Source: Escherichia phage ECO4
Sequence record: NC_054911.1
Reading direction: 5' to 3' (one strand)
Length of the DNA: 64,000 nt
Position 1 is the stretch's first letter. Every line of letters starts with the position of its first letter. Positions 23,205 to 31,814 of the stretch are shown here, in pieces. The translations under genes and the position numbers were made by a program. The notes below the pieces were generated by a model that saw nothing but the letters and a program-made list of their open reading frames with translations, did no database searches and had not been told where the DNA came from.

Positions 23205-23480
23205 TTATTTTCAAGTATTGTAAAACATTCGATGCAATCGCTTATATTGTCGAATCATCTTTTTAGTAGGACGAGAATAGGTTCCTACGCAAGTGGTCAT
23301 ATGAGGGTCCGTAGAATGTCCTTTAATAAAAAGTTTCCAAACCTTACCGCCATTTAACTTTTCAGTATAAACCAATTCGGTTTTCATTAAAATGTCCTGT
23401 CAGAAAAAGAATTTTGAGTTTTTTCAAGTATTGTAAAACATTTGATTCAATCGCTTATATTGCCGAATCTTTTGGTCAGA
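23205..23480. repeat. direct repeat pair (about 50 bp, roughly 92 percent identical, 216 bp apart) duplicating the 3' end of pin
   Basis: ttttcaagtattgtaaaacatt(c/t)gat(g/t)caatcgcttatattg(t/c)cgaatc at 23207 and 23423; a second short repeat gtcagaaaaagaa(t/a)tttgagttt flanks copy B. Confidence 0.6.
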
Positions 23481-23909
23481 AAAAGAAATTTGAGTTTCAA
23501 GCCATTCAATGTACTCTGCGGCAGCTTGCATTAAATTTCCTTCATAACCATCGTTATTTTCTTGTGCAGCTAATTTAGCTAATGCGTATGAAATACGTTC
23601 ACCTTGAAAATCGGCTTTAGGCTTCTGAACAACTTGATTAGTTCGCTCTACAACTTCTTCAATTTCGCCATTTTCGACTGATTCAGTATTCCACAAGCAC
23701 CAATACGTAATTGGCTTATCATAGATGTTAATAATCTTTCCGTCGGAAAGTTCAATTTCAATAATTCCAGTATCAGGCTCTATATCATCTTCACATTCTT
23801 TTGCAAGTTCACGAACTTTAAAGACAGTACCTGCACTAAGTTCCGGCCAGTAATTACATAGCCCTGTATCAACACGATTAATTCTAAACCACTTATCTAC
23901 TGTAATCAT
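23424..23909 (-). CDS. pin: Pin-like protein (inhibitor of host Lon protease)
   Basis: 161 aa from MITVDKWFRINRVDTGLCNYW; position next to gene 49; track start is TTG artefact. Confidence 0.7.
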   Translation of the reverse strand: MITVDKWFRINRVDTGLCNYWPELSAGTVFKVRELAKECEDDIEPDTGIIEIELSDGKIINIYDKPITYWCLWNTESVENGEIEEVVERTNQVVQKPKADFQGERISYALAKLAAQENNDGYEGNLMQAAAEYIEWLETQISFSDQKIRQYKRLNQMFYNT

Positions 23910-24926: not shown

Positions 24927-25316
24927 TTAATCCAAAATATTATTAGGCATTGGTTGAACACTCACAAGTTCTTTAAAGAACTCAGTAGAGTCAGGCAATT
25001 TAACCATTTCCGGAGCATGCTTACTGAATTTATGTTTACATTGACGGCATTTATATTCAAGCTCTGGTTTACGCCAGTTAATCAACTGAACTTGTTCAGT
25101 ACCGCATTCAGGGCAATTAGGAACGTTTTTAGAAGCTCTTTCACGTCGTTCAACCATAGCCATAATAGCATCCCATGCTGGAGGTTTAAAATCTAAATCA
25201 TCGCAGCCGTGAATCTTTCCACGCATTTCCATATCATCTTCCTCACCAGCCATAATAATTTTAATTAGACTAGAATTACTTGAAGCTGCAATGTCTTCTA
25301 ATAAACGCTTTTTCAT
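24927..25316 (-). CDS. hypothetical zinc-ribbon protein
   Basis: CPECG...CRQCKH paired Cys motifs. Confidence 0.5.
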
Positions 25317-26242
25317 TTCAATACCTCAATAGCATTACGTAAACCATTTGCTTTGGCGGTTAAAGCCTTAAGAACTTTAGTATGCTCTTCAATTTGTTTT
25401 TCAACTTCAGTCAAACGGGCATTGAGATATTCACGTTCTTCACCCAGATTATCAACCTTTTCTACTTTAGGCTCTTTTACAACTGTCTTATATGTATTAG
25501 GGTTCTTCAGTTTAATTAGAATGCGTGAACTGTATAACATTGAACCATTATCTTCGGTTTCGTCATACATTTCCACTACGTCCATAATTTTTAACATCAT
25601 GCGGAGTTTATAAGACAACGAACGAATAGTTTTGTTGTGCTTATTAATTTCTTTAGCTGTCATGGTGCCGAGATTACGTGAGTAATAATAAGGAACCTGG
25701 ATATTAATTAATACTGATGAACCACCTGGCTTGTGTGTTACTTCATCAGCAATAACCCAATCCTTAACATGAACTGTATTTGTACGGTCATCGCCCGCGG
25801 TAAATAGTTTGCGAGCATGCTTAAAAAGCATATTCACTTGGTCATTGAATTGACAAGCAAATTTATCAGCAAATTTAGTTTCAGGAATGGTAGATAACCA
25901 ATCAGCCAAATGGGTCTTTTTAACATCGTTAACAATAGTAAATTCAACCAAATCGGTTATAGATGTCGCAGATTTAATGAAGCTCGGCTTCATAAAGTTT
26001 TTAATGTTATCGCGAGCTACGGTAGAAGATAACATACGAGAACGTTTAAACCATTCAAGCAAATTGCCTAACGAATGAGAATAAGCGTTTTGAGTATCTT
26101 TACAGATATGATTTTCCTGGCCAACATATTGAAGGAAATCACGAAGAATATTATTGATTACTGCTCTGTGCCCGATCTGATAATTACGGTGTTTAGTAAT
26201 AAGACTGTCAAAATAATCAATATAATGTTTACGAGTTTTCAT
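25313..26242 (-). CDS. hypothetical protein with C-terminal coiled coil
   Basis: 309 aa; heptad-like C-terminus EEREYLNARLTEVEKQIEEHTKVLKAL. Confidence 0.55.
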   Translation of the reverse strand: MKTRKHYIDYFDSLITKHRNYQIGHRAVINNILRDFLQYVGQENHICKDTQNAYSHSLGNLLEWFKRSRMLSSTVARDNIKNFMKPSFIKSATSITDLVEFTIVNDVKKTHLADWLSTIPETKFADKFACQFNDQVNMLFKHARKLFTAGDDRTNTVHVKDWVIADEVTHKPGGSSVLINIQVPYYYSRNLGTMTAKEINKHNKTIRSLSYKLRMMLKIMDVVEMYDETEDNGSMLYSSRILIKLKNPNTYKTVVKEPKVEKVDNLGEEREYLNARLTEVEKQIEEHTKVLKALTAKANGLRNAIEVLK

Positions 26243-26294
26243 GTTCTTCTCACTTGGTTAATGATTTATACTCCGAGCCATCCTTGGCTTTAAA

Positions 26295-27296
26295 TTACTT
26301 AATTAACTGTAAAGCTTGTTCAAGACGATCCAAGCGATTAACAGATTCTTCCCAAATCTTTTTAGCCTTCTCATATTCTTTCTGCGCTTTATTAGAAATT
26401 TCTAGAACTTCTTTATAAGCTTTTTCTAGTGCAACAACTTCTGGACGAATTTCTACCGGTTCAGGTGAATCATCAAGATTATCCATTAGTTCCTCAAGGG
26501 TAGTTTCTTCTTTAGGAGTATTCACAATTTCATCACATTTTTGTTGATAAATTTCTTTATCAGTAGGTGAGTACGCGCACTTTACTTCACGAAGACTAAT
26601 TACAATTTTATATCCTTCCCAACCGCATATATTCTTAAAAGGATATGTATGAATATTTTCTACTGTTTCCATACAAAGTAATGCGGTCTCTAATTGACGA
26701 GTTATAGTGCTAGCAATTGAGAAAAATTTATTAATATTCTTTTGGTTAGTTTCTGGTGTAAAAAATCCATAATTCACAAAAATAGATACTTTATTTTTAT
26801 CAAGTTCATATTCTTTTATGATAATCATATCAGAAGCCAAAGGATGAATTTGACGATAATCGCCATAACATAATTTAGAAGCTGATTTTAGAATCTGTCC
26901 TTTGAAAAGTCTGAAATTACTAATCCAACGACGAGTAAAAATATTCTCAGGGTCTTCTTTATTATTAAGATGATAAGAATTAACATCACCGAACCAATTA
27001 TATCCTACTACATCTTTGGTTCGTTTAATTTCTTTCCCAAAATTACCAAGAATATCCCGATTAACCAAATATGAAAGAAGACGAGACTCTTTAAAGGTTT
27101 TCTTGATAACATCTTTATCTACACGGCTAGAAATTTTACGAATTTCATGAATAAATTTAGTAGAAGAAACAATACTTGCATCAACACTATTGAGCCATTG
27201 ATTGATAATAGAAAGAACGCTATTCTGACTAGACACAGGTTTAACTTTATCATCAATAACGCTATTGAATGATTTGATATATTCGTTACGAGTCAT
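26295..27296 (-). CDS. hypothetical protein with C-terminal coiled coil
   Basis: ATG 27296 (MTRNEY) with RBS GAGGAG, directly downstream of early promoter; track start extended. Confidence 0.55.
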   Translation of the reverse strand: MTRNEYIKSFNSVIDDKVKPVSSQNSVLSIINQWLNSVDASIVSSTKFIHEIRKISSRVDKDVIKKTFKESRLLSYLVNRDILGNFGKEIKRTKDVVGYNWFGDVNSYHLNNKEDPENIFTRRWISNFRLFKGQILKSASKLCYGDYRQIHPLASDMIIIKEYELDKNKVSIFVNYGFFTPETNQKNINKFFSIASTITRQLETALLCMETVENIHTYPFKNICGWEGYKIVISLREVKCAYSPTDKEIYQQKCDEIVNTPKEETTLEELMDNLDDSPEPVEIRPEVVALEKAYKEVLEISNKAQKEYEKAKKIWEESVNRLDRLEQALQLIK

Positions 27297-27324
27297 AATA
27301 ATCTCCTCAGTAGAAAGTAAGAAC

Positions 27325-27354
27325 ATTATACCACATCCTTGTGGCAAAGTAAAC
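27325..27354 (-). promoter_or_regulatory. early promoter, GTTTAC-18nt-TATAAT
   Basis: Upstream of ORF 26295-27296. Confidence 0.65.
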
Positions 27355-28376
27355 TAGTTCAGTGCATTTAGTGCATTGTTCAGTTTAGAACGTTGCTTCG
27401 TAAGATTTTTGACTTTTTCTTGAGCTTTTTCTAGCATCTTTTCAGCTTCTAGCACTTCATTGGTCACTTTAACGAGTTCATCATCTACTGCCTTAAGAGA
27501 CTTCTCAATCGCATCGGCGTGCCATTTTTCTACAGGTTTAAAATTTGAATTTTCAGTAGGAAGAAAACTCACTTTATTAAGTTTACATGCATCTATATTG
27601 CTTGAGCTATACATCCAAAATTTAGGATCGTTTGATGAGTAATTGGATAAATTTAAGATATCTTGCACTTCCTGCTTTTTCTCTTGCGGGACTTCGTCCT
27701 TTCTCAAAAAATCGTATTTAAATGAAACGATCATATCAAGTTCATATGTTGTTGTGTCTAATTTAAATCGCTCAAAACGAGGTAAAATCTTAGACTGAAC
27801 AGCGGCAACAACATCCATATACTTAAATGCTTCTGTCAACTGCGATTTAAGGCATTCGCAAATTGAAAGAGAATTTTTTGTATTAGGTTTAAAGCTAATT
27901 CGCGCAGTTCTGTTATTTTCTTTTAATGGTCTTACTTCCATCTGAAGAGTATAACCATCAAATTTCAGGTTCTTTAAGTTAATGTCAGAACCTTTTAATC
28001 GACTAGCAGTCGACAAAATTTGCTTTAATTGTCTACGGAACAGAGCAATAAATCTCCATTCAATACGATAATGATTTGGATTGAAAAATCCAGATGATAA
28101 ATCGACCTTACTTTGACCAACGCCTTGAACAAATAGAGGATTTTTATAATCAATAGTTTTACAGAAATCTGTGAGCTGCTCACGAGCAGTCATTTGTGTA
28201 ATATACCCCGCTTTACTAAAATTACTCACCCATTCACTGCTATTTAGATATTTAAAGTGATGAATAGCATGATTAACTTTATCAGGGTCTAAATTATTTT
28301 CACACAAAAATGTCATAACATTACGAGTATCGCTGGCAGTACGAACCATATCTTCAATTTGAGAACGAGTTTTCAT
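27354..28376 (-). CDS. hypothetical protein with C-terminal coiled coil
   Basis: 340 aa ORF, C-terminal heptad-rich segment. Confidence 0.55.
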   Translation of the reverse strand: MKTRSQIEDMVRTASDTRNVMTFLCENNLDPDKVNHAIHHFKYLNSSEWVSNFSKAGYITQMTAREQLTDFCKTIDYKNPLFVQGVGQSKVDLSSGFFNPNHYRIEWRFIALFRRQLKQILSTASRLKGSDINLKNLKFDGYTLQMEVRPLKENNRTARISFKPNTKNSLSICECLKSQLTEAFKYMDVVAAVQSKILPRFERFKLDTTTYELDMIVSFKYDFLRKDEVPQEKKQEVQDILNLSNYSSNDPKFWMYSSSNIDACKLNKVSFLPTENSNFKPVEKWHADAIEKSLKAVDDELVKVTNEVLEAEKMLEKAQEKVKNLTKQRSKLNNALNALN

Positions 28377-28384
28377 GGTATTCC

Positions 28385-29290
28385 TTAAGATTTAAGTAAA
28401 TCGACAATTTTAATTAACTTTTCACGCTCAGATTTAGCTTTACTACTCAATCCAGATAGTCTGAAAATTTCATCATCATATTGTTGAATAGAAACATTCA
28501 GCTCTTCAATCTGTTTATTAAAATAATCAATTTGTTCAAAATGTTTTTCGTTACTATGAACTGGTACAGGTTTTGTAGGCAATGTAGTTGAACTGGATTC
28601 ATCCGGGCGATAAATTAAAATACAACTTGAACCAATAGGGCATTTTGCACCAGATGAATATTCTAATGTTCCAGATTCTTTTAAAACTTCAAAAGCTAAA
28701 CAGAGATGATGCCCCATATTAACATAATCTGTAGAGTGAGCTCTGATGTAATAATCATCGCCACGAGTACTAAATTTAAAGCATTTAAGGTCTTCTGTAT
28801 TATTAGTCTTAAAAATCATTTGTTTATCTAGACCTTTAGCTAATCGAGCGCCTAATGCTAATAATCGTCTTTGATTTTCCCACAAATCCGCAATCATTTG
28901 ATCGAATGATAATTTTGGCATTAGTCGACCATAAAGGTCATATCCTTTATTATAATTACGAAGGATTTCACTCGCGTTAATACGAGACAATGCTCCAATT
29001 TTATTAAGGGCTTTCATAATGCGATTAGATAAACTCATTCCAGACCCATTTGTTCGCTGCAAATGTTTTTCTAATCCAAATCCAATATCAACTTTAAACT
29101 TATCTAAAATTTCTGCATGAACATCTCTGTCAATAACATTCAAATCCAAAGTTGGGTTAAATCTATGAAAAAATTTATCCGGCTCTCCACGGCGAAATAC
29201 AGTCCATTCATTCATCATTTTTTTATTAACTAAAGATTTAATTACTGCATTGACATTATTAATTACTACTGACATATTTTCCTCACTCAA
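28385..29290 (-). CDS. hypothetical protein with C-terminal coiled coil
   Basis: 301 aa ORF. Confidence 0.55.
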   Translation of the reverse strand: MSEENMSVVINNVNAVIKSLVNKKMMNEWTVFRRGEPDKFFHRFNPTLDLNVIDRDVHAEILDKFKVDIGFGLEKHLQRTNGSGMSLSNRIMKALNKIGALSRINASEILRNYNKGYDLYGRLMPKLSFDQMIADLWENQRRLLALGARLAKGLDKQMIFKTNNTEDLKCFKFSTRGDDYYIRAHSTDYVNMGHHLCLAFEVLKESGTLEYSSGAKCPIGSSCILIYRPDESSSTTLPTKPVPVHSNEKHFEQIDYFNKQIEELNVSIQQYDDEIFRLSGLSSKAKSEREKLIKIVDLLKS

Positions 29291-29739: not shown

Positions 29740-30267
29740 TTATGCGAGTACCGTCTTTAACCGTTCTTCAAACTTCCGAAGAGTATTTTGGCGTTCAGCT
29801 CTTTGCTTTTTGTAAGTTTCAATACGCTCTGAAATGAGAGTGTATCGTTCATTTACTGATTCTTTCATAAAATCAGGAATTTGACGAGAAGCTTTAATCT
29901 CGTCAAATTTATCAATAACAGCTTGCTCTTCAGCAATTAAGTTATCATACATTAAAATATCTTTCTTGATGAACTCAATATCTTCTTGAGTTACACGAGA
30001 TAATTTAGATGCTTTATCCTTTTTGTACTGTTCGTTAGTATCACGAGACCAGTGTAATGTACGATTTTTATTCGTATTCTTATAAATTTCTACAATACCA
30101 ATCTCATCAATAATAACGATCCAATTCCAACGGGATTTGTAAATTTGTCCTCCATCAACAGTGATTTCACCTCCGATTGAGATGTCATTAAAGAACTTGC
30201 TTTGTGCTTCAGATTTAAATTTACCATCGTTGTAATTTACCAAGTTGAAAATATCTTTAGCGTTCAT
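29740..30267 (-). CDS. hypothetical protein
   Basis: 175 aa, RBS GGAGGAA, directly downstream of early promoter. Confidence 0.55.
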   Translation of the reverse strand: MNAKDIFNLVNYNDGKFKSEAQSKFFNDISIGGEITVDGGQIYKSRWNWIVIIDEIGIVEIYKNTNKNRTLHWSRDTNEQYKKDKASKLSRVTQEDIEFIKKDILMYDNLIAEEQAVIDKFDEIKASRQIPDFMKESVNERYTLISERIETYKKQRAERQNTLRKFEERLKTVLA

Positions 30268-30295: not shown

Positions 30296-30325
30296 ATAGT
30301 ACCACAGAGGAACAGTCTTGTAAAC
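30296..30325 (-). promoter_or_regulatory. early promoter, GTTTAC-18nt-TACTAT
   Basis: Upstream of ORF 29740-30267. Confidence 0.7.
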
Positions 30326-31779: not shown

Positions 31780-31812
31780 TTTTGAAATAAAAAAGGGAGC
31801 CCGAAGGCTCCC
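31780..31812 (-). terminator. intrinsic terminator (UUCG-loop hairpin plus U-tract)
   Basis: GGGAGCC-UUCG-GGCUCCC followed by UUUUUUAUUUC. Confidence 0.65.
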
Positions 31813-31814
31813 TA

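Follow-up and report, generated by a model that had tools for sequence, protein, structure and literature searches.

Four nrdC-linked genes with C-terminal heptad tails in a T4-like phage: probable diverged tandem paralogues with a likely anti-Dsr1 member

The nrdC.3-nrdC.6 genes and their products

The window analysed here, a stretch of 64,000 nucleotides (nt) of Escherichia phage ECO4 (record NC_054911.1), derives from a T4-like phage (Tequatrovirus) and carries, at positions 25313-29290, four consecutive genes that are the counterparts of nrdC.3, nrdC.4, nrdC.5 and nrdC.6. A first-pass annotation, made from the letters alone, had pointed to four co-directional open reading frames (ORFs) of similar size, and all four are indeed present on the minus strand, with products of 296-340 amino acids (aa). 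We conclude that these genes are, with high probability, diverged tandem paralogues of one ancestral gene, whose products all end in a charged, heptad-patterned tail, and that one of them, the nrdC.5-like gene, likely encodes an antagonist of the host defence protein Dsr1.

The cassette is flanked by nrdD, endonuclease VII and nrdC on one side and by nrdC.10 and nrdC.11 on the other, every gene lying on the minus strand. Megablast of 25313-29290 matched 655 phage records, the top one at 96.7% identity, and the names nrdC.6, nrdC.5, nrdC.4 and nrdC.3 were taken from annotated T2 and T4 records. Relative to the proteins of the T4 record U76612, identity is 97% for nrdC.6 (counting only the stretch that is comparable in this old record), 92% for nrdC.5 and 96% for nrdC.4, and just 62% for nrdC.3. 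The four genes, with their isoelectric points (pI) and expectation values (E) where relevant, are as follows.

25313..26242, minus strand: nrdC.3-like gene; 309 aa, 35.9 kDa, pI 9.4; Mosigvirus-type allele; phrog_1435 at E=1e-115
26295..27296, minus strand: nrdC.4-like gene; 333 aa; 96% identical to T4 NrdC.4; phrog_1435 at E=1e-167
27354..28376, minus strand: nrdC.5-like gene; 340 aa; DUF7235 (PF23882) at E=1e-118; 92% identical to T4 NrdC.5
28385..29290, minus strand: nrdC.6-like gene; 301 aa from TTG 29290; phrog_2257 at E=1e-150

Two of the start codons deserve comment. The nrdC.6-like product is probably 296 aa long, starting at ATG 29275 rather than at TTG 29290, because GAGGAA precedes this ATG and the homologues in the databases are themselves 296 aa in length. 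The mechanical ORF of the nrdC.4-like gene extends to TTG 27347 and thereby runs over an early-type promoter and a GAGGAG Shine-Dalgarno sequence; since both lie before ATG 27296, the latter is the right start.

In the family databases the four proteins are split up. The nrdC.3-like and nrdC.4-like proteins match phrog_1435 from end to end, and all of their homologues carry PF26897. The nrdC.5-like protein matches DUF7235 (PF23882) over residues 1-340 with 396.6 bits, against a Pfam gathering cut-off of 30, and all 105 of the 105 homologues of nrdC.6 carry PF26899. PHROGs thus groups only nrdC.3 with nrdC.4, and the newer Pfam holds three families, PF26897, PF23882/DUF7235 and PF26899. Apart from DUF7235, the Pfam matches of the four proteins are all sub-threshold and mostly to coiled-coil families, and a search of the proteins against NCBIfam returned no match. 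With no membrane segment and a pI of 7.6-9.4, the four are soluble, neutral to basic proteins of 35-40 kDa.

Hundreds of GenBank phage records label nrdC.3-nrdC.6, as well as nrdC.10 and nrdC.11, as "thioredoxin", and the position of the cassette between nrdD/nrdC and tk might seem to favour thioredoxin-like redox proteins of ribonucleotide reduction. None of the four proteins has a thioredoxin or glutaredoxin match in Pfam or NCBIfam, however, none of the four contains a CxxC motif, and the predicted architecture is unlike the thioredoxin fold. This explanation is effectively refuted, and without the domain and the motif the label can therefore be considered an artefact that has spread from the gene name "nrdC.x".

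Relatedness of the four proteins

The first-pass annotation had proposed a paralogous family built by tandem duplication, with pairwise alignment among the suggested checks. The alignment agrees with this in part: BLASTP among the four proteins finds nrdC.3 and nrdC.4 to be similar (25% identity over 226 aa), but no other pair is significant. Comparison by hhalign of single-family profiles built from close homologues likewise links nrdC.3 to nrdC.4 at 98% and leaves the rest ambiguous (42% and 31% for two of the pairs), and no link besides nrdC.3/nrdC.4 appears when hhalign is given the tails alone or the bodies alone. An exhaustive HMMER search with the nrdC.5 profile retrieved only 13 proteins, none of them from the other three families, and single-protein scans of viral contigs returned close relatives only.

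The profiles were enriched by collecting syntenic regions of other genera by means of nrdC.11 as an anchor, together with 30 NrdC-anchored viral contigs, clustering the proteins and rebuilding the profiles. With these, nrdC.3 and nrdC.4 are again linked at 98%, nrdC.5 matches the Mosigvirus "nrdC.5" at 98.5%, and nrdC.4 and nrdC.5 are linked directly at 75% over 233 collinear columns; for a motif-centred segment of the same two families the value is 89%, with z=14.6 relative to column-shuffled profiles. A single-copy 315-aa gene family of Klebsiella Marfa-like phages, which we refer to as B315, bridges these two families, with hhalign probabilities of 92% to nrdC.4 and 95% to nrdC.5 and hmmsearch E values of about 1e-7 to each. 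nrdC.6, in turn, matches a single-copy gene of Karamvirus at 84.5% by hhalign. When the families are merged into super-profiles, the set comprising nrdC.3, nrdC.4, B315, nrdC.5 and Mosigvirus nrdC.5 aligns with the set comprising nrdC.6 and the Karamvirus gene at 93.2% (E=2.9e-7, 115 columns, z=20), and the addition of Moon-type families raises this to 94.4%, with z=34 against shuffled columns and E down to 9e-8. Profile links, either direct or through intermediates, thus connect every family with the others.

The super-profile alignment contains two sequence blocks that are common to all four proteins. Block 1 reads SSTVARDNIKNF in nrdC.3, SYLVNRDILGNF in nrdC.4, TQMTAREQLTDF in nrdC.5 and SRINASEILRNY in nrdC.6; block 2, as aligned, reads LFKHARKLFTAGD, ILKSASKLCYGD, ILSTASRLKGSD and LLALGARLAKGLD in the same order, and is located as follows.

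25787..25828, minus strand: block 2 of the nrdC.3-like protein, LFKHARKLFTAGDD, residues 139-152
26859..26894, minus strand: block 2 of the nrdC.4-like protein, ILKSASKLCYGD, residues 135-146
27984..28019, minus strand: block 2 of the nrdC.5-like protein, ILSTASRLKGSD, residues 120-131
28826..28864, minus strand: block 2 of the nrdC.6-like protein, LLALGARLAKGLD, residues 143-155; no other stretch of the nrdC.6 family is as invariant

When the ORF fragments of all six frames of the window are scanned, only these four proteins contain the block-2 pattern, a specificity statistic that is inflated because the pattern was defined after the sequences had been seen. No additional family member was found elsewhere in the window. 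The N-terminus M(K)TR is common to nrdC.3, nrdC.4 and nrdC.5, and the first 12 nt of nrdC.3 and nrdC.5 are identical.

AlphaFold2 gave a model of nrdC.6 with a predicted local distance difference test (pLDDT) of 76 and a predicted template modelling score (pTM) of 0.65, and a weaker one of nrdC.5 (mean pLDDT 55), the poor quality of the latter being due to the narrowness of the nrdC.5 family. In this structure prediction, which had been suggested with the first-pass annotation, the two models show the same order of elements: helices at the N-terminus, which carry the two blocks and of which the block-2 helix is the last, then a small beta-alpha-beta unit, a linker that is disordered and poorly conserved, and lastly an amphipathic C-terminal helix. 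Searched against a viral structure library, the nrdC.6 model matches only proteins of roughly 300-335 aa from other T4-like phages, at 11-16% identity. They include proteins of Pectobacterium PM2 (E=5e-8), Enterobacter IME523 (4e-7) and Acinetobacter fHyAci03 (4e-6), as well as two Acj61 proteins with consecutive accessions and one of Citrobacter Merlin. Outside its own family, the nrdC.5 model returned mostly noise, save for two T4-like phage proteins, and a sequence search of solved structures found no relative.

These results do not all point the same way, and the weakest member of the set is nrdC.6, for which one could argue that it is not homologous to nrdC.3, nrdC.4 and nrdC.5 at all and resembles them in size, position and tail through convergence or tail acquisition. 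Its link to the other families needs merged profiles, single-family comparisons giving 0-4%; its motif-centred segments align in register with those of nrdC.4 and nrdC.5 at z=0.1-0.9, which is no better than the shuffled null; and the viral fold search with its model listed no Tequatrovirus nrdC.3, nrdC.4 or nrdC.5 entries. For the set as a whole, divergent members of the families do not always adhere strictly to the block-2 pattern (9/24 and 9/20 do), and we infer the fold shared across all four from profiles and the order of secondary-structure elements, with models of two proteins, nrdC.5 and nrdC.6. All of this weighs against common descent. On the other side, the merged super-profiles reach 93-94% with E about 1e-7 and z=20-34, in a collinear alignment whose end falls precisely at the shared block, and even the weak comparisons place their best local alignments in register on the motif. 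Secondary-structure elements follow one another in the same order, and the nrdC.6 model matches Moon/Merlin-type and Karamvirus-type proteins, of which the Moon-type family is itself profile-linked to relatives of nrdC.4 and nrdC.5. A separate origin of nrdC.6 is, in our view, very improbable, and there is little doubt that all four genes descend in tandem from one ancestor. The duplication proposed in the first-pass annotation is thus supported, although it took enriched and merged profiles, beyond pairwise alignment, to support it. The joining of PF26897, PF23882 and PF26899 and the single-copy genes of other T4-like genera into one superfamily appears to be new, as does the breadth of its occurrence among T4-like phages.

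The C-terminal heptad tails

Each of the four proteins had been described as ending in a heptad-rich, charged tail of about 40 residues. The charged heptad tail is found in all four, but its length is rather 50-60 residues. Tails were rated with a home-made heptad score, for which the complete set of ORFs in the window served as calibration, and by this score the last ~50 residues of each of the four proteins contain a top-1% window. Of the 73 ORFs that reach 100 aa across the 64,000 nt, only 6 have such a C-terminal window, the two others being the nrdC.8-like gene (29740-30267) and the ORF at 23424-23909, and a shuffled-tail control gave z = 2.0-3.6 across the four proteins. In detail, the last 49 residues of all four proteins form seven unbroken heptads with 12-13 of the 14 a and d positions hydrophobic and with 35-41% charged residues, and the heptad register, counted from the C-terminus, is identical in all four. 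The tails are located as follows.

25316..25462, minus strand: nrdC.3-like heptad tail, last 49 residues; 12 of 14 a/d positions hydrophobic
26298..26444, minus strand: nrdC.4-like heptad tail, last 49 residues; 12 of 14 a/d positions hydrophobic
27360..27536, minus strand: nrdC.5-like C-terminal helix, residues 281-339, pLDDT 76-94; 13 of 14 a/d positions hydrophobic
28391..28549, minus strand: nrdC.6-like C-terminal helices, residues 248-277 and 283-300 in the 301-aa numbering; 12 of 14 a/d positions hydrophobic

In the AlphaFold2 models the tail of the nrdC.5-like protein is a single 59-residue helix and that of the nrdC.6-like protein a pair of helices of 30 and 18 residues. Heptads, hydrophobic a/d positions and predicted helix, the features expected of a coiled coil, are accordingly all found, with one Gly-containing kink each in nrdC.6 and nrdC.3. 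Within the families the tails are better conserved than the bodies (0.84 vs 0.68, 0.66 vs 0.45, 0.38 vs 0.31 and 0.64 vs 0.43).

The most plausible reading of these features, and one that we hold with some reserve, is that the tail is an oligomerising coiled coil. Against it speak the nature of the score, which is our own heuristic and not a calibrated coiled-coil predictor, and the kink of the nrdC.6 tail, which may be a helical hairpin. One could also imagine a C-terminal helix that does not self-associate and instead binds a partner, or packs as an intramolecular hairpin, against the body or a host protein. The prediction of two helices in the nrdC.6 tail, with a break at LSGLS, would fit this, as would the finding that the tails are family-specific and better conserved than the bodies, as expected of a specific binding surface. 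The nrdC.5 tail, however, is one confident unbroken 59-residue helix, and seven regular heptads in the same register in all four proteins are the signature of a coiled coil, a helix of this kind being unstable alone. We consider a tail that does not self-associate unlikely, if worth keeping in view, and retain the oligomerising coiled coil as the preferred reading.

Charged heptad-like tails also occur in the vicinity. One is found in the nrdC.8-like gene (29740-30267, 175 aa), which neighbours the cassette and is conserved there in Tequatro-, Mosig- and Dhaka-type phages. Its product has a charged, heptad-like helix at the C-terminus, …RKFEERLKTVLA, with a top-1% score and 9 of 14 hydrophobic a/d positions. 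The gene was considered as a fifth member of the family and rejected, the probability of the body of its product against every family being at most 2.4%. Further away, two adjacent minus-strand ORFs at 23211-23387 (58 aa) and 23424-23909 (161 aa) have nearly the same C-terminal peptides, …MIRQYKRLHRMFYNT and …KIRQYKRLNQMFYNT, and may represent a small duplicated C-terminal module.

Cassette turnover, transcription and a possible role in counter-defence

A comparison across T4-like phages, which had been suggested as a check on the duplication, agrees with it. In nearly every T4-like contig the stretch just before nrdC holds at least one ORF of 315-393 aa whose tail scores high. The composition is.6-.5-.4-.3 in Tequatrovirus,.6-.5-.4 in the Dhaka/Gapriver group and.6-.5-.3 in Mosigvirus, and one copy is found beside nrdC in Moon-, Karam-, Marfa- and Acinetobacter-type phages. 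A single copy in the distant genera and three to four in the Tequatro-/Mosig-/Dhaka-Gapriver group of T-even relatives fit an expansion by duplication, and the ancestral gene would correspond to the single copy that lies immediately upstream of the nrdC thioredoxin gene in the distant T4-like genera.

By tblastn, nrdC.3 was found in 652 phage records, nrdC.4 in 553, nrdC.5 in 551 and nrdC.6 in 740, and the neighbouring nrdC.11 in 1503. For nrdC.3 there are two classes of allele, with 356 records at 90% identity or more and 280 at 60-80%, and the window carries the RB69-like, Mosigvirus-type allele. An nrdC.3 of 62% identity among neighbours that are 92-98% identical to T4, together with the two allele classes, points to allele replacement within the cassette. 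Other members have been lost or rearranged: phage LYE-01 (L045), a complete Tequatrovirus genome, is without nrdC.4; on contig L024 nrdC.4 is split into ORFs of 193 and 158 aa; and in a protein of 299 aa from a 167-kb contig (P0056) residues 146-272 of nrdC.5 are joined in frame to nrdC.3 from residue 135 to the end, with nrdC.4 removed. The cassette is thus unstable: its genes are duplicated, lost and fused in frame, and their alleles are replaced.

Two candidates for the exchange of tails were considered and rejected. The last ~50 residues of a 173-aa protein (P0248) are nearly identical to the nrdC.5 tail and follow a different N-terminal part; it stems from a lone contig of 803 bp (L044) and can be aligned with the divergent LYE-01 nrdC.5 allele over linker and tail, and is not taken as a tail module swap. 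A second short protein with an nrdC.5-type tail (P0253), which might have indicated tail shuffling, has a lipoprotein leader of Gram-positive type and looks like a chimera of assembly. A separate observation concerns Citrobacter phage Moon (L003; 12574-13059 and neighbours), where many small unrelated ORFs lie between nrdC.11 and the single family member, among them an annotated RNA polymerase ADP-ribosylase and a DUF4031 gene. This filling with small ORFs suggests that the interval from nrdC.11 to nrdC is a general hotspot of accessory genes in T4-like phages.

The genes had also been described as being served by early promoters, which holds for two transcription units but not gene by gene, with one clear site before nrdC.4 and another before nrdC.8.

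27325..27353, minus strand: T4 early-type promoter, GTTTAC, 17 nt, TG-extended TATAAT; directly upstream of the nrdC.4-like gene
30296..30324, minus strand: early-type promoter-like site, TTTACA, 17 nt, TACTAT with TG; upstream of the nrdC.8-like gene

The first of these, read from 27353 to 27325, is the counterpart of "early promoter 50.0" in the T4 record U76612 and serves the nrdC.4-like gene and probably the nrdC.3-like gene as well. At the position equivalent to the second, U76612 annotates -35/-10 signals, and a transcript of nrdC.8,.7,.6 and.5, whose extent we deduce from the gene arrangement, probably starts there. The start of the nrdC.5-like gene lies 8 nt past the nrdC.6 stop, a gap that marks nrdC.5 as operonic, and nrdC.6 and nrdC.5 are therefore probably both read from the promoter upstream of nrdC.8. 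Promoter-like sites across the region show no excess over chance (37 seen vs 32 expected). Just downstream of nrdC.11, at 31794-31813, the sequence can form a strong, GC-rich hairpin, AGGGAGCC-TTCG-GGCTCCCT, with a run of T after it on the minus strand; it coincides with the terminator in the T4 record, after which comes the T4 early promoter 54.4.

Regarding function, which the first-pass annotation had given as unknown, that description is outdated for nrdC.5. Srikant, Guegler & Laub 2022 (eLife 11:e79549, PMC9391042) described a T4 clone with deletions that failed to plate on ECOR17. Removal of dsr1 from ECOR17 gave plating back, and T4 nrdC.5 supplied in trans restored plating of the deletion clone on MG1655 carrying dsr1 from ECOR17 (PMC9391042). 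The same study found the region to be dispensable on laboratory hosts and its loss to narrow the host range (PMC9391042). Among the genes of the cassette, orthology to T4 NrdC.5 holds for the nrdC.5-like gene only, which is 92% identical over 340 of 340 residues, with a full-length DUF7235, and occupies the same genomic slot. Since it is this similar and syntenic, the protein of the window most probably acts like T4 NrdC.5, and on these grounds of sequence we consider it likely to be an anti-Dsr1 protein. The evidence for the Dsr1 phenotype itself comes from the T4 protein and not from this allele. T4 NrdC.3, NrdC.4 and NrdC.6, which are annotated as hypothetical, are the same genes in the same order, the nrdC.3 of the window differing (62%). 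As T4 nrdC.5 overcomes Dsr1, these three paralogues become candidate counter-defence genes, a role that we would put forward as a serious though not the favoured possibility for them. In the literature searched, up to August 2026, we found no follow-up on NrdC.5 and no published mechanism, binding partner or structure for it, and DSR1 is still termed poorly characterised.

Two known systems offer a comparison. DSAD1, an inhibitor of DSR2 from phages of the SPbeta group (PMC10973363, PMC10981675), is a functional analogy only, in that a phage protein is directed against a SIR2-domain NADase defence; it differs in its target, DSR2 rather than DSR1. These papers report a direct action of DSAD1 on DSR2 (PMC10973363, PMC10981675). 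No DSAD1-labelled entry occurred among the matches of the viral fold search or of the solved-structure sequence search, the DSAD1 sequence itself not having been compared directly. The second is the T4 dmd-tifA-adfA "anti-TA island" (toxin-antitoxin, TA; PMC9391042), which, like the nrdC cassette, consists of early, non-essential, variable and clustered accessory genes whose loss narrows the host range, but which is made up of unrelated small genes, whereas the nrdC cassette is made up of diverged paralogues of one architecture.

Taken together, we favour, by a reasonable measure, a picture in which these are early proteins that oligomerise through their tails and bind host immune proteins with their diversified bodies, Dsr1 being the one on which nrdC.5 acts. 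Early in infection, the promoter upstream of nrdC.8 would drive nrdC.6 and nrdC.5, and the one upstream of nrdC.4 would drive nrdC.4 and nrdC.3. The tails would mediate family-specific self-association as coiled coils and so display several bodies on flexible tethers, and the fast-diverging body would bind and block a host immune protein. In the case of nrdC.5, experiment in T4 has shown the pathway concerned to be that of the SIR2-domain defence protein Dsr1, and nrdC.3, nrdC.4 and nrdC.6 would then neutralise other defence proteins or other variants. Oligomerisation, direct binding and the counter-defence role of nrdC.3, nrdC.4 and nrdC.6 are the parts of this picture that we infer. It has to be set against the facts that the published data concern T4 nrdC.5 alone and not this phage, that they come with no proposed mechanism and no demonstration of binding (PMC9391042), and that we found no similarity of the proteins to known anti-defence proteins or solved structures.

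The proteins could also be true paralogues that serve mostly in host takeover or phage physiology, acting for example on host nucleoid, transcription or metabolic proteins, with the Dsr1 effect as a side effect or the specialisation of one lineage. Three of the four genes are without a recorded phenotype, and the proteins share a basic character (pI up to 9.4) and early synthesis with many host-takeover proteins of T4; moreover, the retention of a single copy beside nrdC in very distant T4-like genera suggests a role broader than one strain-specific defence. Set against this, phages can do without the region on laboratory hosts but lose host range when it is gone (PMC9391042), and the rapid divergence of the bodies, together with allele replacement and loss among close relatives, is the pattern typical of an arms race. 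We regard a main role in host takeover as unlikely, if worth keeping in mind, and prefer the binding of host immune proteins.

Extending this preferred reading, one could speculate, and quite tentatively, that the genes belong to a Straboviridae-wide superfamily of multivalent immune antagonists, each a "head on a coiled-coil stalk", in which the head of each T-even copy neutralises a different defence protein and the tail provides avidity for oligomeric targets. If so, the targets might include several sensors that deplete nicotinamide adenine dinucleotide (NAD) or are oligomeric, and nrdC.3, nrdC.4 and nrdC.6, along with the single-copy relatives in Klebsiella, Acinetobacter, Enterobacter and Citrobacter phages, would be uncharacterised counter-defence genes open to direct screening.

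The four genes have been on record since the sequencing of the T4 genome, and the result refines their description and does not add a new kind of system. NrdC.5 is nevertheless no orphan: it belongs to a family with a head, a linker, a predicted coiled coil and two conserved blocks, which offer handles for mutagenesis, truncation and tail swaps, and its single-copy relatives in phages of clinically relevant hosts (Klebsiella, Acinetobacter and Enterobacter) join the three adjacent paralogues as counter-defence candidates. As a hotspot of allele replacement, loss and fusion, the cassette is of use in studying differences in host range among otherwise near-identical T4-like therapeutic phages.

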